Below, one piece after another: positions 20,599 to 40,565 of a stretch of 52,813 bases of DNA. The DNA is from Bryobacteraceae bacterium (lineage in GTDB: Bacteria; Acidobacteriota; Terriglobia; Bryobacterales; Bryobacteraceae). The notes beneath the pieces are model-generated. The model ran no database searches, was not told the DNA's origin, and saw nothing but the letters and a program-made list of their open reading frames with translations. Within the stretch, counting starts at the first letter, position 1. Each line of letters opens with the position of its first letter. The stretch covers positions 1 to 52,813 of the forward strand of contig DATFZA010000814.1 in assembly GCA_035314765.1 (NCBI GenBank), given 5' to 3'. Made by a program: the position numbers and the translations under genes.

Positions 20599-21522
20599 AT
20601 GGAACTGACCCGCCGGGAAGCACTGCTAGGCGTCGTTTCGCGATGCGTTCCGGTCGCGGCAGCGTTGGCCCTTCCCGCGGCGCAGGCTGCCGAGGAGTCG
20701 CCTTCTCAGCCGAAGGCGCCGGTAGGGATGCTCTACGATGCGACCTTGTGCATCGGCTGTAAGGCGTGTGTGGTCGCGTGCGCGGAGGCAAACGACCTTC
20801 CGAGGGACGTCTCGCTCGATGGTCTGCATCAGGCGCCCGAAGATCTGAATGCGTTCACCAAGAACATCATCAAGCTCTACAAACCCACTGACAACAGCCC
20901 GGACTCGTTCGTGAAACAGCAGTGCATGCACTGCCTGGATCCGGCTTGCGTCGCTGCTTGCCCCTTCAAAGCGCTCTGGAAGAACGACGGCAACGGCCTG
21001 GTTGCCTGGGAGCCTTCGCGCTGCATCGGATGCCGTTATTGCGAGATCGCCTGTCCGTACCATGTGCCGAAGTTCGAGTGGGACAGGATCAACCCGAAAA
21101 TCGTGAAATGCGAGCTCTGCCGGCCGCGGCTTGCCAAAGGGTACGAACCGGCTTGCACGTCGGTATGTCCGACGCATGCGGTGATCTTCGGCCCGAGGGA
21201 AGGTCTGCTGACCGAGGCCAAGGACCGGATTGCACAGTCGCCCGACAAGTACTTTGAGAACCGAGTATATGGCCAACACGAGGCGGGCGGGACACAGGTG
21301 CTGTATCTCTCGCATGTGCCGTTCGAGGACCTGGGTCTGCCCAACCTGGGGACTGAGCCGATTCCCGCCAGGTTGAAATGGCAGAAGCGCGTCTACAAGT
21401 TCCTTGCCGTGCCGCTACTGCTCTACGCTGGGTTGGCCAGCTTGATGAAGAAGAACTGGATCGATCACCGCAAAGAGATGGTGGAAGAAGAAAGGCGAAC
21501 GGGATTGAGGCCGCAACTGTGA
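20599..21522 (+). CDS. hybA: hydrogenase 4Fe-4S ferredoxin-type subunit (HybA-like)
   Basis: Tat-like TRREALLG, several CxxCxxCxxxCP motifs, and a C-terminal TM helix. Confidence 0.88.
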   Translation: MELTRREALLGVVSRCVPVAAALALPAAQAAEESPSQPKAPVGMLYDATLCIGCKACVVACAEANDLPRDVSLDGLHQAPEDLNAFTKNIIKLYKPTDNSPDSFVKQQCMHCLDPACVAACPFKALWKNDGNGLVAWEPSRCIGCRYCEIACPYHVPKFEWDRINPKIVKCELCRPRLAKGYEPACTSVCPTHAVIFGPREGLLTEAKDRIAQSPDKYFENRVYGQHEAGGTQVLYLSHVPFEDLGLPNLGTEPIPARLKWQKRVYKFLAVPLLLYAGLASLMKKNWIDHRKEMVEEERRTGLRPQL

Positions 21523-22811
21523 AGAACCACATTATTGTTCGCTGGCAGCGGGGCGTGCCCGTCTACGCCATAGCCAAGATCACGCCGTTTTTCATATTCC
21601 TTTGTGCGATGGGTGGGTTGGCGATCGTGCTGAGCATCTATCGCGAGCTGACCGGTTTGGGCCGTGTCAGCGGCCTGAACGATATCTACGCATGGGGAAT
21701 TTGGAAAACCTTCAACACCATGGTCCTGACTGGTCTGGGATCCGGCGGATTCTCGATCGGCATCGCGGCGTGGATCTTCTTTCGCAGGAAGCTGCACTCG
21801 GTAATGCGGACGGCGGTCCTCACCAGCTTCGTGGCTTACTTTAGCGGCCTGATCGCGCTCGGCGTTGACGTCGGACGGCCGTGGAACTTCTACCAGGTGC
21901 TGATGCCATGGAGATGGAACGGCCATTCGCCATTGTTGGAAGTGTGCTTCTGCATGCCGCTTTATGCATGTTTCCCGCTATTCCTGGAGAACACCCCGCC
22001 CCTTTTCGAGCGCTGGTTCTACACGTGGCCAAAGTTTCGGCCGATCCTGATGAAGTACGTGGTGCCCGTGACTCGCGTGACTTACCCTTATGTAATTGCC
22101 CTGGCTTACGCGCTACCGATGATGCACCAATCGTCGCTCGGCGCTCTGATGTTGCTTGCAGGACCGCGCGTTCATGTCCTCTGGCAGACGCCGTTCTTGC
22201 CGCTTCTGTACGTCTGGGCCGCGGCATTTCTCGGCTACTCCTGCGTGCTCGGGGTGCTGATGGTGTCTTGCCTTTCCTGGAAGCGCCCCTTGGACACGTC
22301 GATTCTCGGGGAACTGGCGCGCATCATGTGCTGGCTGGTTCTGAGTTGGAACATTTTCCGTTTTCTGGACATACTCGCGCGCGGCCAGATCGGCGCAGCG
22401 TTCGCATTCGACCGTTTCAGCCTGTTGTTTTGGCTGGAAACTCTGCTACTGGTTGTTCCCTCCGTCTATCTACTTGCGGGTAGCCATTGGCGGGTTCCGA
22501 GCCGCTTATTCCTGGCCGACGTGCTGATTGCCGTGGGTGGAATGCTTTACCGGTTCGATCCAACCAGCTTTGCCTTTGCTGCCCGGCCGGGAGCGATGTA
22601 TTTCCCGTCCGCAATCGAAGCCCTCATCGGCGCCGGCGCCGTCTGCTTCGCGCTTGCGACTTTTATCGTCGCGGTAAAGTACTTGCCGATTTTGCCGGCA
22701 CCGGTTACGGCTTGGCATGACCTGCAGGAATATGCAGGAGCGGTCCACCAGAATTGGAGCCTCAAGACTCATGACTTCTCGCATAAAAATCGATCCAATC
22801 TCGCGGATTGA
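21519..22811 (+). CDS. hybB: hydrogenase integral membrane subunit (HybB / NrfD family)
   Basis: GTG 21519 overlaps the hybA stop (GTGA). About 430 aa and polytopic throughout. Confidence 0.85.
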   Translation: MKNHIIVRWQRGVPVYAIAKITPFFIFLCAMGGLAIVLSIYRELTGLGRVSGLNDIYAWGIWKTFNTMVLTGLGSGGFSIGIAAWIFFRRKLHSVMRTAVLTSFVAYFSGLIALGVDVGRPWNFYQVLMPWRWNGHSPLLEVCFCMPLYACFPLFLENTPPLFERWFYTWPKFRPILMKYVVPVTRVTYPYVIALAYALPMMHQSSLGALMLLAGPRVHVLWQTPFLPLLYVWAAAFLGYSCVLGVLMVSCLSWKRPLDTSILGELARIMCWLVLSWNIFRFLDILARGQIGAAFAFDRFSLLFWLETLLLVVPSVYLLAGSHWRVPSRLFLADVLIAVGGMLYRFDPTSFAFAARPGAMYFPSAIEALIGAGAVCFALATFIVAVKYLPILPAPVTAWHDLQEYAGAVHQNWSLKTHDFSHKNRSNLAD

Positions 22812-24459
22812 AGGCCATCTACGCATAGACGCCGAGGTAGACGGCGGCCTTGTCTCCAAGGCGTGGGCATCCTGCACCATGTGGCGCGGCATCGAGAACA
22901 TCCTGATTGGCCGCGACCCGCGCGAGGCATGGCTGTTCGCGCAGCGCTTTTGCGGCGTATGCACCACCGTTCACGCGCTGGCCAGCGTGCGCGCCGTCGA
23001 AGACGCCCTGAAGCTGCCAATACCGCCGAACGCGCAATACATTCGCAATCTCATTCTGATCCTTCACGCGCTCCACGACCACATTGTGCACTTCTACCAT
23101 CTTTCGGCGCTGGATTGGATCGATGTGATGCAGATCCCCAAGGCCGATCCCGTTAAGACCGCCTCCCTGGCGCAGAGCCTGTCCTCGTGGACCCGAAACT
23201 CGCCCCAGGAATTCAAGTCGGCTCAGGACAAAGTAAAAGCTCTCGCCGCCAGCGGGCAGCTTGGAATCTTCGCCAACGGCTATTGGGGCCATCCGGCCAT
23301 GCACCTGCCGCCGGAGGTTAACCTGCTCGGCTTCACTCATTATCTGCAGGCGCTGGAATTTCAGCGCAAGTCGAACCAGGTGGTCGCAATCCTCGGCGGG
23401 AAGACGCCGCATATCCAGAACCTGACAGTGGGCGGCGTCGCCAATGCCATCGATCTGGACAGCCTGGGCACGCTCACGATGGACCGGCTCACCATGATCC
23501 GCTCCCTCATCGACGAGGTCATTCCGTTCGTTCATGAGGTCTACTTCCCGGACGTGTGCGCGATTGCCGGAATGTACCCGGAGTGGTTCGATGTCGGCGG
23601 CGGTGCGAGAAATTACCTTGCGGTCCCGGACCTTCCGAACGGATCCGGCTTCGATCTCCCCGGAGGTGTTATTCTCTCCGGAGATTTGAATGCCGCGAAG
23701 AAGTTTGAGACTGCGGCCGATCCGGACTTCCGTCGGGCTGTAACGGAAGACGCGACGCGCGCCTGGTACAAGGGCGGCGCCCTCCATCCGTGGAAGGGCA
23801 AGACGCAACCGGATTACACCGATTTCCAGGACAACGGCAAGTACACCTGGGTGAAGGCGCCGCGCTACGACGGGCGCCCGATGGAGGTGGGGCCGCTCGC
23901 CAACGTTTTGGTGGGATACGCTCAGGGGCATCCGCTCACGCGGAAGTGGACGGATGAGGCGATCGCCCGCGTCTCCGCGGTGGCCAAGCGTAAGGTCACG
24001 GTCGACAAACTGGAATCCACGATGGGCCGCTATGCGGCACGCGCTATCCGCTCGGCTATGCTGGCCGACCTCGCGGTGAAGCATTGCGAGTTGCTGACCA
24101 ATAACATACTGAATGGCGATGTGGCCACGCACAACCCGCCGCAATTCCCCAAGGGCGAGGTCGAGGGGGTCGGAACGCACGAAGCGCCGCGCGGCACGCT
24201 TTCGCACTGGGTCGTGGTCAGGGACGGGAAGCTCGCCAACTACCAGGCGGTGGTCCCCACCACGTGGAACGCGAGCCCGCGCGACGCGCAGGGCAACGTC
24301 GGGCCTTATGAGGCGTCGCTCATGCGCAACCCGGTAGCTGATCCGGAGCGGCCGCTCGAACTGCTGCGCACCGTGCATTCATTTGACCCCTGTATGGCGT
24401 GCGCGTGTCACACCTTCGATCCGGATGGCCGGGAAATTGCGACGGTGAAGATCCTATGA
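22771..24459 (+). CDS. hybC: [NiFe]-hydrogenase large subunit
   Basis: Start trimmed to ATG 22771 (MTSRIKIDPISRIEGH). N-terminal Ni-ligand motif RFCGVCTTVH and C-terminal DPCMACACH, followed by a 15-aa extension that is the protease substrate. Confidence 0.93.
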   Translation: MTSRIKIDPISRIEGHLRIDAEVDGGLVSKAWASCTMWRGIENILIGRDPREAWLFAQRFCGVCTTVHALASVRAVEDALKLPIPPNAQYIRNLILILHALHDHIVHFYHLSALDWIDVMQIPKADPVKTASLAQSLSSWTRNSPQEFKSAQDKVKALAASGQLGIFANGYWGHPAMHLPPEVNLLGFTHYLQALEFQRKSNQVVAILGGKTPHIQNLTVGGVANAIDLDSLGTLTMDRLTMIRSLIDEVIPFVHEVYFPDVCAIAGMYPEWFDVGGGARNYLAVPDLPNGSGFDLPGGVILSGDLNAAKKFETAADPDFRRAVTEDATRAWYKGGALHPWKGKTQPDYTDFQDNGKYTWVKAPRYDGRPMEVGPLANVLVGYAQGHPLTRKWTDEAIARVSAVAKRKVTVDKLESTMGRYAARAIRSAMLADLAVKHCELLTNNILNGDVATHNPPQFPKGEVEGVGTHEAPRGTLSHWVVVRDGKLANYQAVVPTTWNASPRDAQGNVGPYEASLMRNPVADPERPLELLRTVHSFDPCMACACHTFDPDGREIATVKIL

Positions 24460-24989
24460 GAAAGCTGCTGATCGCTGGAATCGGGAATGTGCTGCTCGGA
24501 GATGATGGAGTCGGACCATTTGTCATCAAACTGCTCGAGGCCCGATATGAGTTTGGCGAAGGTGTGGAACTCGCGGATCTCGGAACACCCGCGCTGGACT
24601 TGCCCATGCACCTTGATGGCTTGGATGCGGTGATTCTCATCGATTCTGCAAATTTCGGTGGGGTGCCGGGAGATATCCGCCTGTTCCGTAAAAAGGAAAT
24701 CCTGAGGATTCCGCCGCGGGCCCGCATCGATCCTCATTCCCCCGCGCTGAGGGAATCGCTCTCTCAGTTGGAGTTGATGGGAAAGATGCCGGATGATCTG
24801 GTACTGATTGGCATTCAGGGCAGCCGGTTCGTCGCTGGATCGGCCCTTTCGCCGCCCGTCCGGCAGTGCGTTCCTCACGTCATTGATTCCGTGCTGAGGG
24901 AAGTTCACAGGCTTAAACTCTGGGGCGCGCAGAGGGTGAATGCCAGGCGGCCAGGCATTTGGTGGGATCAGGCCGAAACTGCGGTATGA
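24456..24989 (+). CDS. hybD: hydrogenase maturation endopeptidase
   Basis: ATG 24456 overlaps the hybC stop (ATGA). GIGNVLLGDDGVGPFV motif. Confidence 0.88.
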   Translation: MRKLLIAGIGNVLLGDDGVGPFVIKLLEARYEFGEGVELADLGTPALDLPMHLDGLDAVILIDSANFGGVPGDIRLFRKKEILRIPPRARIDPHSPALRESLSQLELMGKMPDDLVLIGIQGSRFVAGSALSPPVRQCVPHVIDSVLREVHRLKLWGAQRVNARRPGIWWDQAETAV

Positions 24990-24990
24990 G
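24858..24990 (+). repeat. direct repeat copy 1 (3' end of hybD)
   Basis: 133 bp, 130/133 identical to 26551-26683 by manual alignment. Confidence 0.9.
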
Positions 24991-25071
24991 ATTCGTCACC
25001 GTCAGACAAAACCGCCTCCGCTGCAGGAGGGAGGACCGGTCCGATTATTTTCATGAACCGGAGGGCACGCG

Positions 25072-26415
25072 ATGATCGAAGGAGAGCAGTCCTTGGCGAG
25101 CGGGGCCGCTAACGCATCCGCCGCGTATCTATACCCTGAGGACCTGGCCCGATTTGTTCGAGCAAGATGGACGGACGTATCGGTAGGACCTGTCGCACTC
25201 GACCTCTTGCCTGAAGCAGCATCCCTGGAAGAGTTTTTCTCAGTGTGCTATCACGCAAGCATGCTGCGCGAGGAAAAGGCCCCGGTGACGTTCCGCGCCA
25301 TCCTTGCAGCACCTTCGATGTTCCCCGTGGACGGGCGGCCTCCAGACGGAGTCGAGCGTCTTGATTTTACGAGCTCGCTTCCCTTCGACCCGGACGGACT
25401 CAGACGGCTTTCAGTGGCGGCGGATCCGACACGCACGCTAATCGGCGTGCGGGCCGAAGCCCTGGGTCCGCGGATATGGGGTCTAATCAATTCGGGCACG
25501 CGCTGGCTGCGCAATATTCAGGGTGGCAGGCGGGCTGGGGGTTCACTGCCTCCCGTGCCGGTCGTCCACGTCGACGCGCCTGCGGCGATATACGCGTACA
25601 AAGGGAACGAGTTCCTCGGAAAGCTGCGTGGTGGGAAGATCTCAGGGGCGCGGGTAGACCTCTTCGAATCGAAATGGCTGCCGAGCGAGTTCGCCGGATT
25701 CAGGGCGGAACTGATGCAGCGGCACGCCGCCGCTCGGGGCCGCGCGACTGAGTTCGGCGGCGAACGGTGGGCAACACTCGACGCGACGCTCCCGCGCCGG
25801 ATTGCCGAGCGTATGACGAAGCGCGTGATCTCCGTTCTCCGCGACTCGCGCCACGGAGGAACGATTGTGTTTCTCCCACCCGAGTATGTCGGCAGAACCT
25901 CCGACGATGATGCCTACATCGATCTCAAATATCCGTTCGCGGAGGGCGCGTCCCGGCGCTCGTTCTCGGATCTGATAGTCGATATTCTCAACCGCCTTGC
26001 CCAGCTCTACGGCGCGGCCGGCGACGCGGGGCCAATTGGCTGGCGAGAGTTCGAGAAGACGACGGACGACAAGATTGCAACGCTCGATGAAGGCCTATTC
26101 GATTTTGCCTGCATGATTGCTGGGCAGGCCGCGACGGATGGCGCCGTGGTCATGAGCACACACCACGAATACCTGGGCTTCGGCGGGATGATTTCCGGGA
26201 GGCTCCCCGCCATCAGGAGCGTCGCCCGGGCACTGGACCTTGAAGCCGAGCAGGTATGTGAAGAAAACACCGGGAACGTCGGGGCGCGGCACCGCTCGGC
26301 ATATCGGCTGGCGGGCGCGGTGCCTGGCTCGGTTGTGATCGTCATCTCGCAAGATGGCGGCGTGCGCTTCGTATGTCAAAAAGGCCACGCTGTTACCTAC
26401 TGGGAACAGGAGTAA
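25072..26415 (+). CDS. soluble protein with C-terminal DisA_N/DAC (diadenylate cyclase)-fold domain and unknown N-terminal (sensor?) domain
   Basis: 447-aa ORF with a GGAGGG SD. Ordered DAC-like motifs: RHGGTIVFLPP, TDGAVVM (26137-), NVGARHRSAYRLA (26281-), VVIVISQDGGVRFV. No TM segment. Confidence 0.6.
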   Translation: MIEGEQSLASGAANASAAYLYPEDLARFVRARWTDVSVGPVALDLLPEAASLEEFFSVCYHASMLREEKAPVTFRAILAAPSMFPVDGRPPDGVERLDFTSSLPFDPDGLRRLSVAADPTRTLIGVRAEALGPRIWGLINSGTRWLRNIQGGRRAGGSLPPVPVVHVDAPAAIYAYKGNEFLGKLRGGKISGARVDLFESKWLPSEFAGFRAELMQRHAAARGRATEFGGERWATLDATLPRRIAERMTKRVISVLRDSRHGGTIVFLPPEYVGRTSDDDAYIDLKYPFAEGASRRSFSDLIVDILNRLAQLYGAAGDAGPIGWREFEKTTDDKIATLDEGLFDFACMIAGQAATDGAVVMSTHHEYLGFGGMISGRLPAIRSVARALDLEAEQVCEENTGNVGARHRSAYRLAGAVPGSVVIVISQDGGVRFVCQKGHAVTYWEQE

Positions 26416-26550
26416 CCTTAGGGTGGAACTTCCATCCTCGGAGTTCAATTCTTCGCGCGATTGCGGCAGCAAGCGGGCTCCTGCTCGGGGGCCGGGTCAC
26501 GTGGGCTACCCTGGCCTGCCAGCATGCTGGCAGCTGGCACACCCCAGCTC

Positions 26551-26683
26551 GTCCGGCAGTGCGTTCCTCACGTCATTGATGCCGTGCTGAGGGAAGTTCA
26601 CAGGCTTAAAGTCTGGGGCGCGCCGAGGGTGAATGCCAGGCGGCCAGGCATTTGGTGGGATCAGGCCGAAACTGCGGTATGAG
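26551..26683 (+). repeat. direct repeat copy 2 (orphan hybD 3' fragment)
   Basis: Encodes VRQCVPHVIDAVLREVHRLKVWGAPRVNARRPGIWWDQAETAV*, which duplicates the HybD C-terminus. It has no protease N-terminal domain. Confidence 0.9.
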
Positions 26684-26693
26684 GTGAACGAAC

Positions 26694-26963
26694 ATGTGTC
26701 TCGCGATTCCCGGCAAAATCGTCGCTCTTGAGGAGCGGTCCTGCATGCGCATGGGCCGCATCGACTACGGCGGAATCACCCGCGAAGCTTGCCTCGAGTA
26801 CATTCCCGACCCACAGATTGGCGATTACGTCATGGTGCACGTCGGATTTGCCATCAGCAAGGTCGATGCGGAGGAAGCTGCGCGAACGTACCAATATCTG
26901 GCCGAGATGGATCAATTGGACGAGATCGCCGGGCCGGAGCAGCCGCGGGACAAAACGACATGA
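26694..26963 (+). CDS. hypC: hydrogenase assembly chaperone HypC
   Basis: [11 protein letters not shown]-terminus; 89 aa. Confidence 0.92.
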
Positions 26964-28078
26964 AGTATGTGGACGAGTACCGCGATCAGAAGATGGCCGA
27001 AAAACTCGCCGCAGAAATCCGGCGCGCGGTCACGAGGCCGTGGGCCATTATGGAGGTCTGCGGCGGGCAGACGCACTCCATTGTCAAGTACGGAATCGAC
27101 TACTTGCTGCCAAAAGAGGTGGAACTGGTTCACGGACCCGGCTGCCCGGTTTGCGTTACGCCGCTCGAAATGATCGACCGCGCTCACGCCATCGCACGGC
27201 GGCCGGAGGTCATCTTCTGTTCTTTCGGTGACATGCTGCGTGTCCCCGGGTCGACCGGCGACCTCTTTCAGGTGAAGGCCGGCGGGGCCGATGTTCGGAT
27301 CGTCTATTCGCCGCTGGACTGCCTCAAAATCGCCAGCTCCAACCCTGCCAGGAAGGTCGTCTTTTTTGCAATCGGTTTTGAGACTACGGCGCCGGCGAAT
27401 GCCATGGCGGTGTGGCAAGCCAGACAGCAAGGGATCCGGAACTTTTCGGTACTCGTGTCTCACGTCCTCGTCCCTCCGGCGATGACCGGCATTCTGGAAT
27501 CGCCCGACAACCGAGTGCAGGCATTCCTGGGGCCGGGACATGTGTGCGCGGTCATGGGCTATCGGGAATACGAACCCATTCCGCCGCGCTACGGGACGCC
27601 GATCGTCATCACGGGCTTTGAGCCGATCGACCTGCTCGAAGGAACGCTTATGGCGGTGCGCCAGCTCGAACAAGGCCGCGCGGAAGTTGAAAATCAGTAC
27701 GTGCGCGCCGTGGACGCCGACGGAAATACGGACGCTCAGAAGATGATTGATCGCGTGTTCGAGGTTTGCGACCGCGCCTGGCGTGGAATCGGCATTATCC
27801 CGCGGAGTGGCTATCGCTTGAAGGACGAGTTTCGCGATTACGACGCCGAGCAGATTTTCCAACTGGGACCGATCCACGCGCCGGAGCCGGCGATCTGCAT
27901 CAGCGGGCAGGTGTTGACGGGCCTGAAAAAGCCGCACGATTGCCCTGCGTTCGGCAAGGAATGCACACCGCAGAACCCCCTGGGGGCCACCATGGTATCG
28001 GCCGAAGGAGCTTGCGCCGCTTACTACAACTATGGACGGCATCTGGTGGCGCTGCCGTCCGCGATGGGGAAGGTCTGA
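26960..28078 (+). CDS. hypD: hydrogenase Fe(CN)2CO assembly protein HypD
   Basis: ATG 26960 overlaps the hypC stop (MKYVDEYRD). GPGCPVCV motif. Confidence 0.92.
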
Positions 28079-29124
28079 TGTCACTTTCATTCACGCTCAC
28101 GTGTCCCGTACCCGTTACTCAGCACAAGGCAATCGTGCTCGGCCACGGAAGCGGTGGCCGGCTCACGGCGCAACTGGTGCGCGAGCTCTTCCTGCCGGCG
28201 TTCGACAACCCGGCGCTGCGCAAGCTGGACGACCAGGCGGTGTTAGAGGTCGCGCCCGGGCGGATCGCCATGACCACGGATGCCTACGTGGTGACACCTC
28301 TCTTCTTTCCGGGCGGCGACATCGGACGTCTGGCGGTCAACGGAACCGTTAACGACCTGGCCATGAGCGGCGCCCGCCCCCTGTATCTGACAGCCGCCTT
28401 CATTATTGAGGAGGGGCTTCCCCTAGAGGACCTGGAGCGGGTGGTGCACTCCATGGCGCAGGCCGCCGCAGACGCTGGTGTGGCGATCGTGACCGGCGAC
28501 ACGAAGGTGGTCAATCGCGGTTGCGCCGATAAGCTTTTTATTACAACCGCCGGCGTCGGGTTGGTTCCCGATGGGACTTCGATCTCCGCCTCGAACGCCA
28601 GGCCCGGCGACGTGGTGATCGTCAGCGGCCCCATCGGCGATCATGGCATCACGATCTGGTCCACGCGCGAGGGCATTGACTTCACCGGCAGCCTGCAATC
28701 CGATACCGCTCCGCTGCATGCGCTCGTCGAAGCCATGATCGCGGCGGGCGATGTTCACGTGCTGCGCGATCCGACCCGCGGCGGTCTGGGCACCTCGCTG
28801 TGCGAGATTGCCGCCTCCTCCTCGGTCGGCGTCGAATTGGAAGCAAGCGCCGTGCCTGTACGCGAGGAGGTGAAGGCCGCTTGCGAGATCCTCGGGATGG
28901 ACCCTTTGTTCGTCGCTAACGAAGGACGGCTGGTGGCGATGGTCGCGGAATCGAGCGCCGACGCGGTGCTGCAGGCCATGCGGAGGATTCCTGAAGGCCG
29001 CGACGCTTGCCGCATTGGGCGGATTGTGGCAGAACACGCAGGCATGGTGCTCGTGAAGACCGAGGTCGGCGGCTCGCGCATTCTTGACGTCCCGTTTGCG
29101 GAGCAGTTGCCCCGGATCTGCTGA
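28078..29124 (+). CDS. hypE: hydrogenase maturation protein HypE (carbamoyl dehydratase)
   Basis: ATG 28078 overlaps the hypD stop. AIR-synthase-like fold and a C-terminal PRIC motif. Confidence 0.92.
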   Translation: MSLSFTLTCPVPVTQHKAIVLGHGSGGRLTAQLVRELFLPAFDNPALRKLDDQAVLEVAPGRIAMTTDAYVVTPLFFPGGDIGRLAVNGTVNDLAMSGARPLYLTAAFIIEEGLPLEDLERVVHSMAQAAADAGVAIVTGDTKVVNRGCADKLFITTAGVGLVPDGTSISASNARPGDVVIVSGPIGDHGITIWSTREGIDFTGSLQSDTAPLHALVEAMIAAGDVHVLRDPTRGGLGTSLCEIAASSSVGVELEASAVPVREEVKAACEILGMDPLFVANEGRLVAMVAESSADAVLQAMRRIPEGRDACRIGRIVAEHAGMVLVKTEVGGSRILDVPFAEQLPRIC

Positions 29125-29345
29125 CCATGGATGCGAGTCCGCGGAATAGTCGAAACAACGTGGGGGCCTACGAAGGCTTCCTGAGGCGCAATCCGGTGAC
29201 TGGTCCGGAAAGTCCGCCGGAGCTGTTGCGGACGGCCCACTCCTTCGATGCTGCGGTGCGGAGGGAGCTATACAAGGTGAGCGCCTGCTGCGAACCGAAG
29301 GTGAGTGCCGGAACGCCGGCCGTTTGGTGGGATCCCTGGGCGGCG
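29125..29345 (+). pseudogene. relic of a second [NiFe] large-subunit C-terminus plus a remnant of a protease tail
   Basis: DASPRNSRNNVGAYEGFLRRNPVTGPESPPELLRTAHSFDAAV aligns with HybC NASPRDAQGNVGPYEASLMRNPVADPERPLELLRTVHSFDPCM, but the DPCxxCxxH Ni-ligand motif is destroyed. 29323-29334 (TTTGGTGGGATC) is identical to the IWWD codons of the hybD tail. Confidence 0.55.
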
Positions 29346-29398
29346 CGGCTGGAAAGGTCCGCCGATCGGGAGCGCTGGGAATCGATTGGTGAGCAGCG

Positions 29399-31050
29399 AT
29401 GTATCGAACTTGTAGATTGATCGTCACCGTGCTCTTCGCATCGGCCGTTCTGGCGGACGATTCCACTGCCCGCCTGCCAAACCAGGTGGCTTTCGAACAG
29501 CAAGTGCTGACGTTCATCGCCGATACGATCGACTGGTATCGCCACCTCCCTACCGCCCAGCGAATCGGGACGGAGCCGGGCGACTCGTTATTTCTGGAGA
29601 GCAACCGGTCCATCGCTGTGGAAATCGTGCGGCTATCGTTTGAATTCGGCAAAGCCGTCGCGGCCATCGAAGGGCAGCAGAATTCGGCGGACCACCCGGA
29701 ATCCGCCGCCCGTAGTGACTTGCGTGATTTGATGGCGGAGAGAGCGAAGCTGGATGCAAACACCAAAGAGGCTGTCGATCAACTGAAATCGGTCACACAA
29801 GTAACGCCCACGGCTAGTCCTGCTGATTCGAAGAAGCTGCATACTCAAATGGCTGCGTTTCAAAGCCGCATTGAACTGCTGAAGGCGATGTCAGCAAATT
29901 ACGATGAGCTGATTGGTTTTGTTCGAACCGCCAGTGCCGAAGCGGATGGCGTCACCAATATGGCGGTACTGGTCGAAAACCTGGAGCGGACGGTTCCGGA
30001 GTATCCGAGGCGGCTCCTCCTTCACAGACCTCGAATTTCCCCGCCGAAGCTTCGCGTGCATCTCACGGCATTATGGGAATGATCTCCCGGGCGTCCATGC
30101 TGGCGCGCAAGGAGCAGATTATTGCGGAAATGATCGAGCGAACGGATACATTAATTAACCAAATCTCTCCAGAGCGTGCGAACTCCTCTTACGGAGCCGT
30201 TTCGGAAACAGCTCTTGACGTTCCTGGAGCGGGAGCAATCGCGGCTGACTCATCTGCTCGCGGCAGTAAGAACGGCGTCGTTCCCCATCGCCGCCCTGAG
30301 CAAGCAGCAGATGCTCCCGAACCTATACAGGTCACACCTCGCCGAGCGGCGTTCTGAAATTCAAAAGGAAGATCTGGCTACCTGGAAGGCGCTGATCAGG
30401 CATCTGATTGTTTTGGGGGTGGCCATTACAATGCTGCTGGCAACCAGCGTTGTGGTGCGCAGGCTCGCGAACCGGCATGTGCACGAGGGCCACAGGCGCC
30501 AGATGTGGCTGCTTGGCAGCCGGGTTTTGTTGTAGCTGATCATCCTTGTCCTGGTTCTGTACACTTTTGCGTTCGATCTGAGTTCATTGGCGACATTCCT
30601 CGGACTTCTATCCGCCGGCCTGGCGGTGGGCCTTCACGATGTGCTTCTGGCAATCGGCGGCTACCTGCTGATCGTTCGGAGATTTAACGTACGGATTGGT
30701 GACCAGGTTCAGATATCGGAGGTGACCGGCGAAGTGACAAATCTCGGGCTCCAGGAGATTGAGCTGAGCGAAATCGATACGGCATCGGGGCAGTGGACCG
30801 GCCGGGTCGCATTCTTCTCGAATTCGTACGTCTTCGTCTCACCAGCCACGCCCCTCGTCAGGCAGTTCAGTGTGCCAGCGTGAGGTGTCCGTTGGCGACA
30901 GAACTGCCGAGACTGGGGAACTCAGCGGAAACTCGTTGTTTCGGACGAAGCTCACCGTCGGAACCACAGGTCACCGTGAGTGGACCAACCACTTCCGGAT
31001 CCGAAAGCGCCAACGCTCGCCACTGTGCGCTGATCGAACGTTACGCCTAG
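29399..31050 (+). pseudogene. MscS-family mechanosensitive channel with long periplasmic N-domain, multiply disrupted
   Basis: Signal peptide and coiled N-domain (29399-30082). Homologous reading continues in other frames (30073-, 30176-). An in-frame TAG lies at 30533-30535 inside a TM helix. The MscS core follows: LLSAGLAVGLHDVLLAIGGYLLIVRRFNVRIGDQVQISEVTGEVTNLGL. The C-terminal domain after 30883 is scrambled. Confidence 0.7.
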
Positions 31051-31584: not shown

Positions 31585-32705
31585 TCATTCAAGCACTTCG
31601 AGCAGCAGCGCTTGTACTTTTTCGGCGGCGGCATCCTGCATATGGGGCAGAACGTGAGAATAAACATCGAGCGTGAACGCCACGCTGGCATGGCCCAGTT
31701 GTTCACTGATCACCGTTGGGGAGACTCCCGCGATCAATGAAATGGTTGCGGCCGTATGGCGCAGGTCGTACAGCCGTATCGCCGGCAGTTCCGCCGACCT
31801 AAGCAAGGGCTTGAAATAGTCCTGCACGAAACGCGGCTCGCGGATTGGTCCCCAGCGTCGGGCACGAAACAGCAGGATGTCGCCACGGGCTTCCAGTTCC
31901 TCTCCGCTTGTTTTCGGAAGAGGGCCACGACCCAAGCCTGGAGCTTTATCAAGCGGCGGCTTCGTGCCCGCTTCGTTTCGGCGAACTGCCAACCACCTTT
32001 TCGCCATTCAAGCGTGTGGGAAACACTAACCGTTCCACGGTCGAGATCGATGTCGTTCCATGTCAGGCCAAGGTATTCACTGGGCCGCATTCCGGTTGTC
32101 ACGGCGAGTGCGAACAGGGAATGGTAGCGATGGCCCGAGATCGCCTTGACGAATGTTCTCGCTTGTTCGACGTTTAGTACTCCAAATTGTCGTCGGTCCT
32201 GTCTGGGCAGATCAACTGCGTCGGCCGGGTTCGACAGGATGAGGTTCCAGCGCGCCGCCTGCTTCAAAGCCGAGCACAAAACTGCGTGGGGGGTATAGCG
32301 GATCGAACGTGCCGAGAGCCTCCGGGCTAGAAGATCTCCGAAGAGCGTCTGAATGTCGAACGCTGAAATAGATGCCAATGCTTTTGGCCCAAGTCCAGGG
32401 CGCACGTAACGGCGTAGCAGCCCTTCGTAGTCTTTGAGACTCTTCGCGCGCAACCGCGGCTTCGCACAGAGTTCGATCCAGCGGTTCAAGTATTGATCGA
32501 GAGTTTGCTTCGACGAGTTGAGCTTTCGCCCACGGTCTCGCTCGCCGAGCATTTTGTTCAGGTGAGCCTGAGCCTCCCGGAGTCCGCCGTGGATAGTTTG
32601 GTTCAAATAGGTTCGCCTCTTAGTTTCTGAGTCGCGGCCGGTGTACACTCGCACCAGCCAGGTAGAACTGCCGCGTCGGACGATCTGGCCGACTTTTCGT
32701 GCCAT
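31585..32705 (-). pseudogene. tyrosine recombinase / phage-type integrase, frameshifted
   Basis: The N-terminal part (ATG 32705, MARKVGQIVRRGSSTWLVRVY..., SAM-like and core-binding regions) is in one frame. The catalytic C-terminus (IRLYDLRHTAATISL...GHASVAFTLDVYSHV) is in another. The switch lies between about 31900 and 31960. Confidence 0.8.
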
Positions 32706-32814
32706 AGGGCACCTCCGGCAGTGCGGGGAAAACAAATGGCACGTGGTTTGGTGGGCGGACGCCGCAATCCACCTCCCAACCCAGAAATGAAACTGGCATC
32801 GAGCGACCGCGGCC

Positions 32815-33083
32815 ATGCATCGCGTACCCGGAACCACCCTGGTTGAGTATACGAAAGCCAAATGCATCGGCTGCCGGATGTGCACCATTGCGTGCCCGTT
32901 CGGCAATGCGGTCTACGACAGCTTCACGGAATCGATCTTGAAATGCGCACCTGTGGCGGCGACCCGGCGTGTGTCGCCTACTGCCCCAGCCATGCGCTCG
33001 AATTCGTGGACGACAACATCTCGACGCGGACGCGGAAAAAGGCGTTCGCATCCAGATTCAAGGAAGCATTCCAGGAGGCATAG
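32815..33083 (+). pseudogene. 4Fe-4S dicluster ferredoxin-type subunit, 5'-truncated and frameshifted
   Basis: KCIGCRMCTIACPFGNAV in one frame, [18 protein letters not shown] in the next, with a 1-nt lesion near 32948. Only about 85 aa remain and the N-terminus abuts the integrase upstream region. Confidence 0.6.
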
Positions 33084-33085
33084 CC

Positions 33086-34815
33086 ATGAGCGGATGGAGC
33101 GGCACGATTGCCCGAATCAACCTGACGACCGGCGCCATCAAGAAAGAACGAACCAATCTCAAGGACGCCGCCCTGTTCCTGGGCGCGCGCGGACTGGGCG
33201 TCAAGATTCTCAGCGACGAGATCGACGCCACCATCGAGCCCCTGTCGCCGGAGAACAAGCTGATCTTTGCACCCGGACCTTTCTCCGGCACCTTTGCGCC
33301 TTCGGCCGGCCGGTATCACGTAGTGACCAAAAGCCCTTTGACGGGAGCCATCGCGGGATCGAACTCCGGCGGAGTGTGGGGGCCGCAGTTGAGATACGCC
33401 GGGTATGACGCATTGATATTCGAAGGCAAAGCAGAGAAACCCGTCTACCTCTGGATCAAGGACGGCCACATGGAACTACGAGATGCGTCGCATCTCTGGG
33501 GCAAATGGGTGCCGGACACGACTGAGGCTGTGCGCGCCGAAACCGACGACGATGCCAGTGTCGCGTGCATCGGTCCGGCCGGCGAGAAGCAGGTGCTGAT
33601 CGCCGCCATCATGAACGAGATGCATCGCGCCGCCGGACGTTCGGGTGTGGGCGCCGTCATGGGCTCCAAAAAACCTCAAGGCTGTGGCCGTGGTCGGGAC
33701 GAGAGCGATTCCGTTAGCGTTAGCAGCCCCCAAGGCCTTCGAAGCCGCCGTGCTGGAGGCGCGCAAAAAGATCGCGGCGAACCCGGTGGCTCAGGGCCTG
33801 GGGACCTATGGCACTGAGGTACTGGTTAACATCCTGAATCAGATCGGCTCTCTGCCTACGCACAACTTCCGGGAGGGATATTTCCCGGCGGCCGACAAGA
33901 CGGGCGGAGAATCCTTGAAGGCTACACTGCTAGTGCGCCCCAAAGGCTGTTTCTCGTGTGTGATCAGTTGCGGGCGCGTCACCAAGATCAAGAACCCCAA
34001 GTACGCCAGCGAAGGGGAAGGCCCGGAATACGAAGCCGGGTGGTGCATGGGGGCGGATAGCGGGATCGACGACCTGGAAGCGATCACCAAGGCCAATCAC
34101 CTGTGCAACGAGCTTGGACTTGACAGCATTTCCATGGGCGCGACCGTCGCCTGTGCCATGGATCTGTATGAGCACGGCTTCATTCCCAAGGAGGACGCGG
34201 ACGGCCTCGACCTTCACTTCGGCAACGCCGAAACCATGGTGAAGCTGACCAGGATGACCGGTCTGCGCGAGGGCATCGGCGACAAGCTGGCGCTGGGCTC
34301 CTTCCGGTTCGCTTCGCTTTATGGCCATCCCGAGTACTCGATGACGGTGAAGAAGCAGGAAATCCCTGCCTACGATCCGCGCGGAGTGCAGGGTATCGGC
34401 CTCGAATATGCCACCTGTAATCGCGGCGGCTGCCACGTTAAGGGCTACACCATCTCGGTCGAAGTGCTCGGTCAAGGGCCCAATCTCGACCCGCGGGTTA
34501 TTACCGCCAAGCCATTCTGGGTAAAGCTGTTCCAGGACGTGACGGCGGCGGTGGACGCCGCTGGTGGCTGCATCTTCGGCACGTTCGGCATGGATGTTGG
34601 AGCGCAAAATCGGCCAACAAGCGTTGGATCTGGAGTTTTTGACAAGAGCCTTCAAGCTTGTAAAGGAGTCACGCCAGAAGAACACCGGCACTGGCGAGAC
34701 AGCATCTACGGAGAAATCCGAAGCATGATGCGGCGGAAAGGCTTCGAAGCCAGTCACGCCTGCCAGATCGCCAAGGCAGCCGCGCGGTTTCTATCGCCAC
34801 TGTGCATAACACGAA
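33086..34815 (+). pseudogene. aldehyde:ferredoxin oxidoreductase (AOR family), frameshifted and 3'-truncated
   Basis: N-terminus [16 protein letters not shown]...[13 protein letters not shown]. The frame breaks in the A6 run 33668-33673 (expected reading [16 protein letters not shown]). It continues through CFSCVISCGR and EYATCNRGGCHVKGY. The last roughly 50 aa are replaced by the IS3 fragment. Confidence 0.8.
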
Positions 34816-34827
34816 CCGCGCCAGGCC

Positions 34828-34989
34828 GATGTGGCCTTGCGGGACCTGATTCAAAAAGTCGCGCTGGAGAACCGCTTTTACGGATACCGCCGGGTGACGG
34901 CAGAACTGCAACACCGCGGCACTGTGGTGAACCACAAACGGGTATTGCGGTTGATGCGCGCCGACAACAGACAGAAACGCGGGACCTGA
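34828..34989 (+). mobile_element. IS3-family transposase (OrfB N-terminal region) fragment
   Basis: Frame-1 translation DVALRDLIQKVALENRFYGYRRVTAELQHRGTVVNHKRVLRLMRADN matches my recollection of the region preceding the DDE core of IS3 OrfB. There is no start codon, no DDE core and no inverted repeats. Confidence 0.6.
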
Positions 34990-35560
34990 AACGCCACTTT
35001 TTTTCACGGGTTGGATGGCCCCAGAAAGTCGCCAGTTAGACTGTTTCTTTCAGGTGGTCAGCGCAGGTGGTCACCCATTGGGAATCGTGCAATCTCATCT
35101 GGCTCATAGGTTTACGGCGAGATCCAATCCGTTCACTCGACAACCAGGCTGGGCCGACGGCTCGCAGTCCGGTGGCAGTTCGGGAACGGCAAAAAGAGGA
35201 AGGCCGCGTACCTGTCCGCGCACCTGCCCTGCGCACCTGAAAAAGTCACTGTAACTAACCTGCTCGCGCAGCAGGCCAAGCGGCTGAAAATAATGGAGTT
35301 CCAGGTCCCACGATTTGAGCCGGCGATGACTCGTCTCGCGCCGGATGCCACCCGTGGGCAACGTGGTACGGCGTGTTGCGGTGTCTGGCTCCGGGTTGGC
35401 TGGATGTTGGTCCCACCTCCTCGGGAGCCCCTGGGGCCCCTGACCGGCATGGCCGATCCCAGACCACTGCGGAAATTCCGCAGTCGCTGATGTCACATGG
35501 GAGTTTCCCAAGCGGCCATGTCGGAACGGCGTCGGGACCGACTCCTGGGTGGTGATGGGA

Positions 35561-37416: not shown

Positions 37417-38040
37417 TCACCGCCCGTTCCGTTTGCGCTCACCGTGTAGAACCGTCGCGGCCGTAATCCGTCCGGACCGCCTGGTGACGCCTTGTTCCAA
37501 GAAGAGCCGGTTCAGCGCCGCGGCTTTCCCGTCCGCCCAAGAACTGGCTTTCGAGCACCAGCCCATTTCTTGCAGCATCCGGTCCCGGACTTTCCAGGGC
37601 TCGTCCGGGTGCCGTTCCATTTCCGCCAGCACGTCCAGGGGCACGGGCTCGCCCTCTACGCGCCGCAGTTTGTATCGGGCCGGTACGCCGGCGCCATCCA
37701 GGTATCGCACAGGAAGTTGGTCCGATCCGAAAGTGCGCAGTGCCTTTCGAATCTCGGGCCCGTCCAGATCGCTCCAGATGCCGATAGTCGTAACGCCGTC
37801 GAGTTGCATGATGCGAACGCCGCCCCGGTTCAGAACTGAGGATGCCCGGGCCAATACCGCCGGGGCCGGTTCGGCATCAATCTTGGGAGATTCAGGGGAA
37901 GTGGTACCTACAAAACCTACAAAACCCGGTTTTGATGGTTTTGTAGGCTCGCCTCCTGCCGAATCCCCCGAGATACAAACCTTCGAGTTCCAATCCAGCC
38001 ACCGGCTCCGCTTTTCCGGGCCGGCCGCCGTGGCACTCAT
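37417..38040 (-). CDS. hypothetical protein (gene X) with PTKPSKPGFVGFVG motif
   Basis: Start ATG 38040 overlaps the primase stop (ATGA). 207 aa. The motif is encoded by the 41-bp palindrome 37907-37947. Confidence 0.65.
   Translation of the reverse strand: MSATAAGPEKRSRWLDWNSKVCISGDSAGGEPTKPSKPGFVGFVGTTSPESPKIDAEPAPAVLARASSVLNRGGVRIMQLDGVTTIGIWSDLDGPEIRKALRTFGSDQLPVRYLDGAGVPARYKLRRVEGEPVPLDVLAEMERHPDEPWKVRDRMLQEMGWCSKASSWADGKAAALNRLFLEQGVTRRSGRITAATVLHGERKRNGR
37907..37947. repeat. 41-bp near-perfect palindrome made of four 9-bp units (2 x CCTACAAAA, C, GGTTTTGAT GGTTTTGTA GG)
   Basis: The arms match at 18/20 positions. It lies inside the gene X coding sequence. Confidence 0.85.
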
Positions 38041-40565
38041 TCCCACACCGCCGGATTCACTTGGAACCGGTTGGAGGGGCGCCCGCCATAGGGCCCCGGT
38101 TCCCCGGACAGATCGCGGACCCACCCCGCATCCTGAAGGACCTCCGCCGCCAGTTTCACGGCTTCCGGAGTATCCAGGCCGCTCCACCCTTTCAGGTACA
38201 CCTCGCGGCAGGCGAAGGAACCGCTACCGCCTACCTTGCGCTTCCTGATCTTCTCCGCCAACTCACGGGCGGCCCGAAGTTGTGGAGTCACCACGCACGA
38301 ATAAACCCGCTGCGAGTGCGATTCCAGATACTCACAACACGCCGCGGCCTGCCTTGTGTGCTCCAGCGAAACGGTATCGGCGCTGCCATTGCCCGCCGCC
38401 CATTCCGCCAACTCGAACAGAACCGACAACGCCGGCATCAGCTTGCGGTACTTGCTCAAGTGCGAAACGAGAGCGGGATGCAGTTCATCGCCGCGCACCT
38501 TCGCCTCAAGCTCGGCCAACCATTCCACGAACAGTTCCTGCGCTTCCGGTGCATAGCGGTACCGCACAGGTTGTTCGGGGTCCAACTGCACCAGCTTGTT
38601 GAACACCAGCGCGGCCTGCTCTTCCGAGGACGCGTCTGGAGCCCGGTCTACGTATTGCCAGCCCGGCTCCGTATCCGGCCAGACCAGCAATTGAAACCGC
38701 TGGATCAAACCGTCGTTGCTCGGGCCATCTTCGAGCGCCTCTGCTAAATAGGAACGCAGGCGACCAGGTTGGATGCCGCCCAACATCGACATGCAGCACG
38801 CTTCCACGTGAATGGTGCCGCGGCCGATTCTATCTATGGTGTGACCGGTGTCGCCGTTCCAAGCTTGCAGACAGAATGCGCGTTCGCCTTCGCGGCCGGC
38901 ACGGTCCAGTTGACTCCACCATCCGGTCAGTTCATCCCGGATCACCAGAATGCCGGCCGGATTCTCGCTCATCGTCTGATGCATCGCTTCGAAGGTGGCG
39001 TCATTCACGATCAGGCGCCGAAGCGTGGGTTCTTCCGGTTCATCCTCTGGTCTGTCAGGCGCCGATCTTCCTTTCTTGGCATTTGCCTTGTACTGCTCCT
39101 TCCATGCCGCGCGGCGGAGTTCATATTCTTCTTTGCCGCGGGCGTATTCTTCACTTGCCTCCTCCTGCGCCTGCCGCCACTCGGTCTGAATCTGATGCAG
39201 CGGACGGGTAGCAGCCTGTATGACGGGCGACTTCATGAATCCCGGTGGCGCGATGATGCCACCCCAGAGATTGGGCACCACCACCCAACCCGTGTCATTC
39301 GCCTTCGGCTGGATGACAGCCCGGCGGTTTACCGCTCCCGCGAGGCAGAGCATGGTCACCGTGGCTGGATAGTCCATCGGGACTTGCATCCGCTCCGTCA
39401 CATCCCGCACCAGGGGACGGAACAGAACGGGCAGAAGGTCTTCGGAAAAGGCCTGCACGGGCGGAAGTTCGCTTTGGATCGGCTCCAGCTTCGGCCAATC
39501 GTCCGTGACTTCCACGCGCGCCGCCTGGCGTTTGGGTTCTTCGTTTGCGATGCTCCACCGTGACCGCAGTGCTGCAAGGGATGACGCGTCCAAAAGCGCC
39601 ACAGCATCGACGGCTTCACGGAGTTGATCGAGCGTGCCGCCGGAGTTGCGCCAATCGGTCACGTCACCCTTCTCTGATAAGCCGGGAAGTTCCACCATGC
39701 GGATCGAAGCGGCCGCGGACAACAACGCCGTGGCCACAGCCAGGGCGTGCTTCCTGCCGGGATCGTCGTTATCGGGAAGGATGACGACGTGGCGGTTCCG
39801 AAAATAGTCCGCCCACCCCGTATAGAGATGACTCTCGCCGGAGCCGCCCGGATTGCAGGAAGCCACCAACCCCCAGGACTCCAAGGTGTGAACGTCCTTC
39901 TCGCCCTCGGGGAGGTAGACCGTCTCCGCTCCGACTACCTTCGGGAGACGGTACGGCACCCGCGGAGAGTCGCGAAAGCGATATTCCGCCCCGTCGTAGT
40001 CAACCTGGTCGCTCGCTCTTTTCCAGGTGGGTTTGCCGGTTGCGCGCTCGGCCTTCGGGTCGGGAAGGTACTTGCCGTTCGACAGACCGACGACGATCCC
40101 GCCGGTGGGAACGCCCCCGATCCGCTCCGGGTCGGTCGTTCCGGCTGCTTCAACTCCGCTCGGACGGACTTGAATGAACGTCTTCTTCCCGTCCGGTTTC
40201 AGATAACGGACGACCTCCAAAAGCAGGTTGCCGTCCGGGTCTGTGTAAGGGTAGCGCTCAATCTCGCGCCACCCGCCGGTTGTGTGCCTGGGTTCGATCC
40301 TGCCCACGAGGCGGAAGACCTCGGCTTTCGCCGTTTTGAAATCCACGCCCGTGAGCGCCATTTCGAGGTCGATGATGTCGCCGCCGCAACCGCAAACCGA
40401 ATGACAATACCATCGGCCTGTCGCGGCTTCCACTTTGAAGTTCGCGTCCTTGCCGCCGTGCCTGGGACAGCCGCAACTCCACTGCGTGCCCTTCTGCTTC
40501 AGGTGGGGGACGCGTTCGTCGTAGAAACGGGACACTTCGCCGGATGTGAATGTGATGATGTTCAT
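38037..40565 (-). CDS. P4-alpha-like primase: zinc-finger + TOPRIM primase fused to DUF3987-type (helicase-like) C-terminal domain
   Basis: Start trimmed to ATG 40565 (MNIITFTSGEV). Cys/His zinc motif CGCPRHGG...WYCHSVCGCGGD. TOPRIM region VYLPEGEKDV...VILPDNDDPGRKHA. The C-terminal 450 aa resemble DUF3987 proteins of integrative elements. Confidence 0.8.
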   Translation of the reverse strand: MNIITFTSGEVSRFYDERVPHLKQKGTQWSCGCPRHGGKDANFKVEAATGRWYCHSVCGCGGDIIDLEMALTGVDFKTAKAEVFRLVGRIEPRHTTGGWREIERYPYTDPDGNLLLEVVRYLKPDGKKTFIQVRPSGVEAAGTTDPERIGGVPTGGIVVGLSNGKYLPDPKAERATGKPTWKRASDQVDYDGAEYRFRDSPRVPYRLPKVVGAETVYLPEGEKDVHTLESWGLVASCNPGGSGESHLYTGWADYFRNRHVVILPDNDDPGRKHALAVATALLSAAASIRMVELPGLSEKGDVTDWRNSGGTLDQLREAVDAVALLDASSLAALRSRWSIANEEPKRQAARVEVTDDWPKLEPIQSELPPVQAFSEDLLPVLFRPLVRDVTERMQVPMDYPATVTMLCLAGAVNRRAVIQPKANDTGWVVVPNLWGGIIAPPGFMKSPVIQAATRPLHQIQTEWRQAQEEASEEYARGKEEYELRRAAWKEQYKANAKKGRSAPDRPEDEPEEPTLRRLIVNDATFEAMHQTMSENPAGILVIRDELTGWWSQLDRAGREGERAFCLQAWNGDTGHTIDRIGRGTIHVEACCMSMLGGIQPGRLRSYLAEALEDGPSNDGLIQRFQLLVWPDTEPGWQYVDRAPDASSEEQAALVFNKLVQLDPEQPVRYRYAPEAQELFVEWLAELEAKVRGDELHPALVSHLSKYRKLMPALSVLFELAEWAAGNGSADTVSLEHTRQAAACCEYLESHSQRVYSCVVTPQLRAARELAEKIRKRKVGGSGSFACREVYLKGWSGLDTPEAVKLAAEVLQDAGWVRDLSGEPGPYGGRPSNRFQVNPAVWE

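Follow-up and report, generated by a model that had tools for sequence, protein, structure and literature searches.

The question raised by this locus is why a gene for a predicted diadenylate cyclase (DAC) lies inside a [NiFe]-hydrogenase operon. The locus is part of contig DATFZA010000814.1 (GenBank assembly GCA_035314765.1), which is assigned to a Bryobacteraceae bacterium of the phylum Acidobacteriota and was analyzed over its positions 1 to 52,813 (52,813 nucleotides (nt), hereafter the window), and the gene, which encodes a protein of 447 amino acids (aa), is located between hybD and hypC. An initial annotation, made from the sequence alone, had described the gene as an insertion bracketed by direct repeats and had offered two views of it, a second messenger wired into H2 metabolism or a hitch-hiking single gene. 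The evidence from related operons and related cyclases favored the latter view. With a probability of roughly 0.7, the gene is a member of a known family that is carried as passenger cargo in a recombination-prone slot between hybD and hypC and is not part of hydrogen metabolism.

The insert between hybD and hypC

The operon has the order hypAB-hybOABCD-hypCDE and begins with hypA-hypB, which had previously gone unmentioned. Pfam analysis identified it as a Hyb-type (group 1) [NiFe]-hydrogenase operon, with genes for the small subunit, a HybA-like ferredoxin, a membrane subunit, the large subunit and the endopeptidase, followed by hypCDE; the 430-aa membrane subunit had no Pfam match, and its identity was inferred from its position. 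The close packing of the genes, described earlier as overlaps or gaps of at most 12 nt, was borne out by measured intergenic distances of -41 to +11 nt throughout the locus (the start of hybD, for instance, overlaps the stop codon of the large-subunit gene by 4 nt), except for the distances from hybD to the inserted gene (82 nt) and from the inserted gene to hypC (278 nt).

A repeat search of the window identified a direct repeat of 137 nt with 97% identity (24854-24990 and 26547-26683), and a separate pairwise alignment of the two copies was free of gaps over 24857-24990 with three mismatches, essentially the same as the 133-bp repeats reported before (24858-24990 and 26551-26683, three mismatches). 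Taken over both comparisons, the repeat measures 134-137 nt and has 3-4 mismatches. A repeat of such length and identity, with copies 1.7 kb apart, cannot be due to chance. The list of open reading frames (ORFs) and the translation both confirmed that a single ORF of 447 aa (25072-26415) lies between the copies, without an effector gene at its side. The left copy completes hybD, and the right copy is a dead remnant that keeps the native upstream region of hypC together with its ribosome-binding site, GAGGTGA, which overlaps the stop codon of the remnant.

The 81-nt spacer to the left of the inserted gene had no match in the rest of the window or in the fetched loci and no significant RNA structure, and the 131-nt spacer to its right matched nothing elsewhere and gave a non-significant fold z-score of -0.98. 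Nothing significant came from scans for terminators and promoters or from Rfam searches, and the Rfam search of the window found neither a cyclic di-AMP (c-di-AMP) riboswitch nor any other Rfam element. The GC content of the inserted gene (0.63, and 0.70 at third codon positions) is the same as that of the neighboring genes, and base composition is no evidence either way on transfer.

The stretch 24301-27000 (2.7 kb), including both repeat copies and the mismatches that distinguish them, was recovered without change from six contigs, each of a separate sample (ENA ERZ27315310, ERZ27315281 and ERZ27315317; JGI 3300004152, 3300027825 and 3300027824), and therefore the insert is not an assembly artifact. 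In a seventh sample (JGI 3300003368), the locus was divided between two contigs near the repeat, of which one begins 146 nt upstream of hypC and the other contains hybD and the left repeat copy and stops within the DAC gene. Exact carriers of the same HybD and HypC proteins were looked up, and filled sites only, no empty site, were found among them.

Read in the hybD frame, each of the three mismatches between the copies changes an amino acid. The functional left copy encodes S, L and Q at these sites and the right copy A, V and P, and nearly all of 20 related HybD sequences have A, V and P; relative to these, the functional hybD copy is in the derived state and the remnant in the ancestral one.

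The hybD-hypC junction in related operons

Relatives of the operon were collected by HybD scans, which gave 79 loci in species-representative genomes and 80 loci in metagenome contigs, and the large subunit, HybD, the DAC protein, HypC and HypD were compared with all 159 loci by tblastn. The DAC protein was encoded in none of the 159, contrary to what would be expected of an ancestral operon member that stands at this position, without repeats, in all relatives. The best HybD in the GTDB species genomes was 61% identical, and the informative loci came from the metagenome scan.

The junction was compared among close relatives, in which the large subunit is 87-98% identical to that of the window. 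In L118, L122, L126, L127 and L128 the junction is empty and hybD directly precedes hypC (for example ...GCGGCGTGAGGTGAATTCATCATG in L128). Other relatives carry unrelated cargo at the same place, either a 298-aa DUF3034-like gene of outer-membrane type with a signal peptide (L021, L111, L117, L119, L129-L132, L140 and others) or a gene for a secreted protein of 243-256 aa with a glycine-rich C-terminal segment (L110, L112, L120, L121, L123 and L124). An aldehyde dehydrogenase gene accompanies the DUF3034-like gene in L115, and both small cargo genes are stacked in L108 (4516-6507). The right repeat copy of the window, together with the start of hypC (TGAGGTGAACGAACATG), reproduces the empty-site junction TGAGGTGAA...ATG of L122, L127 and L128. 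Both the empty sites and the other cargo agree with the earlier proposal that the locus is an insertion or recombination product.

Traces of duplication were also present at other filled junctions. In front of the DUF3034-like cargo of L140, the hypC 5' end is duplicated over 68 nt (82% identical); a 72-nt pseudo-copy of the hypC 5' end (85%) lies between the two stacked genes of L108, ahead of the DUF3034-like gene, while an 18-nt junction repeat brackets the whole stack; and a 16-nt junction repeat remains in L021. The length of the junction duplication thus varies by event, from 16-72 nt for other cargo to 137 nt here. The duplications in L140, L108 and L021 resemble scars of an older event at successive stages of decay, and the 137 nt at 97% identity in the window would represent a younger scar. 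The event is recent, given the 97% identity of the copies as opposed to differences of 15-40% among hybD alleles at the protein level.

Three further loci, L105 (724-4724), L106/L107 and L116, do not continue from hybD into hyp genes. What comes next instead are arsenate-reductase-like fragments, a FUSC-like membrane protein and, on the opposite strand, an alpha/beta hydrolase; with the operon interrupted there, the 3' end of hybD is a recurrent synteny breakpoint. The closest locus among the species-representative genomes, L021 (DATJYJ010000164.1), is a contig of 5.4 kb from a bin assigned to Verrucomicrobiia. The large subunit it encodes shares 91% identity with that of the window, and all other relatives are Acidobacteriota; the Verrucomicrobiia assignment is probably a binning error.

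An identity profile of the window against L110, its nearest relative, was calculated in 100-nt windows and revealed a divergent tract that begins near the 3' end of the large-subunit gene, takes in hybD, the cargo and hypC and reaches into the 5' part of hypD (Table 1). HypE is 100% identical to that of L110 at the protein level. HybD is 66-71% identical in loci in which the large subunit is 97-98% and HypE 94-100% identical, and at much greater distance HybD is ~50% identical versus ~70% for the large subunit. The hybD allele of the window is closest to that of L105 (85% at the protein level), and the C-terminal tail of HybD differs in length and sequence between strains. Since the divergent tract lies within near-identical flanks, hybD, cargo and hypC appear to have been exchanged as a block by homologous recombination via the conserved flanks, and the insertion of the DAC gene need not have occurred in this very genome. 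The insertion deduced earlier from the repeats holds in this respect, and it is better seen as cargo in a hypervariable slot inside a recombination tract of ~3.2 kb.

The relic ORF downstream of hypE (Table 1) is a second rearrangement scar in the same locus. Its large-subunit part matches Pfam NiFeSe_Hases at profile positions 462-500 and, by BLASTP, residues 500-539 of the window's own large subunit (65% over 40 aa), and its HybD tail is of a different allele type (…CEPKVSAGTPAVWWDP). The two halves match the large subunit and HybD in every relative, and L110 shares the start of the relic downstream of its hypE.

These comparisons depict a hydrogenase operon of peat and soil Acidobacteriota in which unrelated genes were repeatedly inserted, stacked and exchanged at hybD/hypC, with scars left behind. 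Classifications or phylogenies that draw on hydrogenase operon structure or on hybD should take the mosaicism and the divergent hybD into account. Compared with the DAC gene, whose location is unusual and probably incidental, the variable slot and the hybD mosaic are the more interesting finding.

The DACNV-DAC protein and its homologues

The N-terminal part of the protein matched the Pfam domain DACNV (PF21751, "probable sensor domain") with an E-value of 6.3e-23 and 81 bits (cut-off 27) over aa 44-139 (nt 25201-25488), which covers profile positions 4-97 of 98. The N-terminal ~230 aa had been regarded as a candidate sensor domain without a nameable motif; a sensor-type domain is indeed present, and it is one already named in Pfam. 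DACNV is taken here as a putative sensor. The domain name reportedly originates from Galperin's 2023 survey of DAC architectures in the Journal of Bacteriology. A long linker helix (aa 208-229) follows, and the DAC domain occupies ~aa 240-447. The protein has no transmembrane segment, as had been stated, with the highest 19-residue Kyte-Doolittle mean (1.35) located within the DAC core.

All four catalytic-domain motifs listed previously were found, at aa 260, 355, 402 and 421, and they include the DGA signature (D356-G357-A358, 26137-26145) and the RHR signature (R406-H407-R408, 26287-26295). Among 35 representatives down to 27% identity, D356, G357, G404, R406, H407, S426 and D428 were invariant and A358 and R408 nearly so. 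An AlphaFold2 model built from 79 diverse family members had a predicted local distance difference test score (pLDDT) of 88.4 and a predicted template-modeling (TM) score of 0.82, and Foldseek returned a probability of 1.0 only for CdaA (6hvn_A, target-normalized TM-score 0.48) and Mycobacterium tuberculosis DisA. An earlier model from a shallow alignment (21 close homologues) reached a pLDDT of 54, and all 50 of its top 50 Foldseek matches were still diadenylate cyclases. Family-profile searches against PDB sequences yielded no more than weak DAC matches, on the RHR region (E-values of 0.13-0.9), and the fold assignment therefore had to rest on structure prediction. No structural match to the N-terminal domain was found in the PDB by Foldseek. 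The conserved signatures, the model and the occurrence of PF02457 (DAC/DisA_N) in 74 of 79 aligned family members at E ≤ 1e-3, all 79 of which matched DACNV, supported the DAC fold that had been claimed for the C-terminus.

Sequence and model place the protein in the already named DACNV-DAC family, of which it would be a new representative. A word-indexed search matched more than 1,396 proteins, the closest only ~68% identical, and an exhaustive search of representatives at 50% identity gave 1,559 matches at E ≤ 1e-3. Relatives, for example those from Rubrobacter, Gloeobacter and Hymenobacter, are named "putative sensor domain DACNV-containing protein" by NCBI. At least 1,559 representative clusters belong to the family, which is widespread among soil bacteria and strictly conserves its catalytic residues, and the gene itself adds little as one more member of a large named DAC family. 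With its relatives it shares the two-domain architecture, a length of ~425-460 aa, an alignment over the full length to more than 1,400 members and the DGA and RHR signatures; it differs in genomic setting only.

The catalytic fold (by Foldseek) and the DGA/RHR signature are also shared with CdaA, DisA and CdaS, and the serine/acidic motif that follows the last strand can be aligned with the corresponding motif of DacM (a diadenylate cyclase according to the title of its PDB entry). The N-terminal domain, however, is of another type than in CdaA, DisA and CdaS. The three N-terminal transmembrane helices of CdaA have no counterpart here and no CdaA model was matched in NCBIfam, and the DAC domain of the cargo protein, which reaches the end of the chain at aa 447, is not followed by the helical spine and C-terminal HhH DNA-binding domain that DisA has. 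In NCBIfam, the CdaS and DisA models scored 11-12 bits versus cut-offs of 201-225 (DisA, 11.3 versus 201).

We know of no DACNV-family member that has been tested enzymatically. To judge from the family, two DAC domains would pair head to head and bind ATP and a divalent metal via the DGA and RHR residues, two ATP would be condensed into 3'3'-c-di-AMP or a closely related cyclic dinucleotide, and the N-terminal domain would gate the pairing of the DAC domains. A literature search found no paper mentioning DACNV and none linking diadenylate cyclases with hydrogenase operons.

The best homologues of the cargo protein (~68% identical), as far as they are named, belong to Rubrobacteraceae, Actinomycetota and Microvirga, and the closest named matches of the host RibBA are metagenome-assembled genomes of Terriglobales (69-70%). 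The cargo gene is most likely foreign and horizontally acquired. No relatives were found in viral contigs and only two distant matches in plasmids.

None of the seven different DAC-homologue neighborhoods was a hydrogenase operon, and no conserved effector partner was found beside the homologues in them. In four of the five neighborhoods of the closest subfamily (63-67% identical), an AraC-family regulator accompanies the DAC gene. It immediately precedes that gene in the same orientation in L101/L102 and L103, lies one gene farther upstream in L100 and is divergently oriented in L185, and the surrounding genes encode aldo-keto reductases, Zn-alcohol dehydrogenases, cupins or flavodoxin-like reductases. 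The fifth, L104, is without the AraC regulator and without those reductase and cupin neighbors, and distant members from Binatia and Gloeobacter have unrelated neighbors. In L185, fragmented hydrogenase genes are located 3-5 kb away on the other strand, a proximity that is regarded as coincidence. The AraC and carbonyl/quinone reductase neighborhood of the closest subfamily is a testable lead to what the sensor domain detects.

Explanations for the insert and other features of the window

The explanation preferred here is that a foreign gene entered a hypervariable hybD-hypC slot of uncultured Terriglobales-like Acidobacteriota, a slot that is empty or variably filled. Only those insertions that leave both tightly packed neighbors intact would survive, hence the duplication of the flanking junction, and the duplications could in this way be explained without a transposase because only neighbor-regenerating insertions are retained. 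The first event may have been homology-facilitated illegitimate recombination, or foreign DNA may have been captured where the junction was tandemly duplicated, and the hybD-cargo-hypC block would then have been swapped between strains through the conserved hydrogenase and hyp genes. The direct repeats would permit RecA-mediated loss of the cargo, or its re-integration as a circle. The position within the operon suggests co-transcription with hyb and hyp, and no functional link to H2 metabolism is indicated by the genomic comparisons.

Homology-facilitated illegitimate recombination and flexible-gene slots, which are exchanged by homologous recombination via conserved flanks, are both known processes. 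The locus resembles such slots in its alternative cargo between conserved genes, in the divergent tract within near-identical flanks and in the target duplications; it differs in being located within an operon of closely spaced genes instead of at a tRNA gene or island boundary, and in having no integrase, transposase or att-like site. A transposon, insertion sequence or integron cassette was ruled out, as there is one ORF, there are no terminal inverted repeats and the duplications range from 16 to 137 nt depending on the event; a distance of 5 kb separates the insert from the nearest recombinase gene.

It is conceivable that the cyclase is a functional addition to the operon, kept by selection, that couples c-di-AMP-type signaling to H2 oxidation or its redox state. 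The gene is on the same strand, has its own ribosome-binding site, is not separated from hybD and hypC by any convincing terminator or promoter, and is intact and fixed in all six long contigs; furthermore, the AraC regulators, reductases and dehydrogenases of the closest subfamily hint at a role in redox or electrophile stress, and one homologue (L185) lies near hydrogenase genes. This explanation is nevertheless judged unlikely, as sister strains have unrelated genes or nothing in the slot, the DAC gene occurs in no other hydrogenase locus of the 159 and in none of the seven homologue neighborhoods is the setting a hydrogenase operon, and the window holds no c-di-AMP riboswitch. The proposal that a second messenger is wired into H2 metabolism found no support beyond the position of the gene, and the unrelated cargo in the same slot argues against it. 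A variant of it appears rather improbable, namely that the junction in this acidobacterial clade is a true insertion hotspot at which an undescribed mechanism places single promoterless genes in an operon that is expressed, with target duplications of variable length, the DACNV cyclase being kept for tying a cyclic-dinucleotide signal to hydrogenase expression or redox state.

DAC domains also act in anti-phage systems (bioRxiv 10.64898/2026.08.10.743927). PanS of the Panoptoo/PanDA system is a minimal DAC of ~150 aa that always occurs with an adjacent S2TM-beta effector, PanE, and CdaG/DS-2C combines DACNG and DACNH in a protein of ~550-575 aa within CBASS-type operons, with a CD-NTase and an effector close by (bioRxiv 10.64898/2026.08.10.743927, 10.64898/2026.08.10.743972). 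Like them, the cargo protein has a DAC catalytic domain and is distributed in a way that points to a tendency for horizontal transfer. Membership in Panoptoo/PanDA was ruled out by the 447-aa length with an N-terminal domain and by the neighbors, hybD and hypC, and membership in CdaG/DS-2C by the presence of DACNV as the only such domain found by Pfam and by the lack of a PADLOC match. That the gene is a single-gene conflict or defense module, a guard or decoy cyclase that landed here by chance, would fit its patchy distribution, which resembles horizontal transfer, and the mobile-element and defense island 5-25 kb downstream (integrase, DUF3987 primase, TOTE-type AEP and serine recombinase). 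It is highly doubtful, as PADLOC gave no match, no effector lies inside the repeats or is conserved beside homologues, the architecture is unlike PanS or CdaG and no relatives occur in viral contigs. An ancestral operon member that was lost in relatives, with the repeat as a secondary duplication, is very improbable: the nearest relatives (large subunit 97-98%) do hold another gene and not an empty site, but the DAC gene is found in no relative at any distance, the right repeat copy with hypC reproduces the empty-site junction, the copies are far more alike than the hybD alleles are, and the best DAC homologues come from other phyla. An assembly chimera of repeat and insert, which the divided locus in JGI 3300003368 might suggest, has a negligible probability in view of the identical 2.7-kb structure, including the three mismatches, in six samples.

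Several observations weigh against the passenger-cargo explanation or the protein assignment on which it builds. The search with PF02457 that had been proposed gave 1.2e-4 and 22.1 bits over aa 379-438, below the cut-off of 27 bits, in contrast to the DACNV domain, which scored above its threshold; TM-scores to solved DACs are only ~0.5; and there are ~18 extra residues between DGA and RHR compared with what we take to be the spacing in CdaA. Cyclase activity is predicted from sequence and model, and its product is uncertain since DAC domains are not restricted to c-di-AMP and can also make 3'3'-cUA (bioRxiv 10.64898/2026.08.10.743927). Both insert spacers were unmatched in the window, the DAC-homologue loci and the hydrogenase loci, and no donor locus with the same flanks was found among these. 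The changes between the repeat copies fall in the live hybD copy, the opposite of a naive expectation for a live gene versus a dead remnant, with three sites being too few to decide (one-sided P = 0.125). How the 137-nt duplication first arose is inferred, and the lack of a link to the hydrogenase is argued from comparative context only.

Table 1. Features of the hybD-hypC region and of the downstream island. Positions refer to the window; identities are nucleotide identities to L110.
Feature	Position	Strand	Remarks
Structural genes up to large subunit	20963-24260		94-100% to L110 in most 100-nt windows
Divergent recombination tract	24260-27480 (limits approximate)		~3.2 kb; large-subunit 3' end to hypD 5' part
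Large-subunit 3' end	~24263-24460		83-85% to L110
hybD, [NiFe]-hydrogenase maturation endopeptidase	24456-24989	+	177 aa; functional copy; Pfam HycI 6e-20
hybD, compared segment	24463-24990		64-78% to L110
Left repeat copy	24854-24990	+	Last 44 codons of hybD, stop codon and one more base
Spacer, 81 nt	24991-25071	+	Insert-specific; GGAGGG at 25060-25065, 6 nt before ATG
Cargo gene, predicted soluble DACNV-DAC protein	25072-26415	+	447 aa; Pfam, motifs and model
Spacer, 131 nt	26416-26546	+	Insert-specific; 18-nt perfect palindrome CTGCCAGCATGCTGGCAG
Right repeat copy	26547-26683	+	Truncated hybD 3' remnant directly upstream of hypC
hypC and 5' part of hypD	26684-27480		75-85% to L110
hypC	26694-26963	+	89 aa; Pfam HupF_HypC 1.5e-26
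Remaining hypD and hypE	27484-29180		93-100% to L110
Relic ORF after hypE	29127-29420	+	97 aa; large-subunit C-terminal fragment fused to HybD C-terminal tail
DUF3987 protein with CHC2 primase zinc finger	38037-40700	-
TOTE-conflict-system AEP primase fused to helicase	44016-45860
Large serine recombinase	49593-50987	-

A gene for a sigma-54-dependent activator with a GAF sensor domain (11082-12665) is located ~6 kb upstream of the hydrogenase operon, which it may or may not regulate; it follows an efflux cluster with genes for an outer-membrane efflux protein and for HlyD-type and FUSC-type proteins. Downstream of the operon, three consecutive ORFs of 227, 119 and 98 aa (29399-30883) resemble a fragmented mechanosensitive-channel gene, the first with a signal-peptide-like start and the last with a match to Pfam MS_channel_2nd, and a homologue of the first fragment adjoins hybD in L106 and L107. 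The ORF at 29399-30082 was compared with the 243-aa cargo of relatives and is not that gene. The region 38037-50987 contains the mobile-element and defense-island genes of Table 1. A tyrosine recombinase gene (31734-32906, minus strand) adjoins an aldehyde:ferredoxin oxidoreductase gene (31734-35039 region), which is split into AFOR_N and AFOR_C ORFs and is probably frameshifted.

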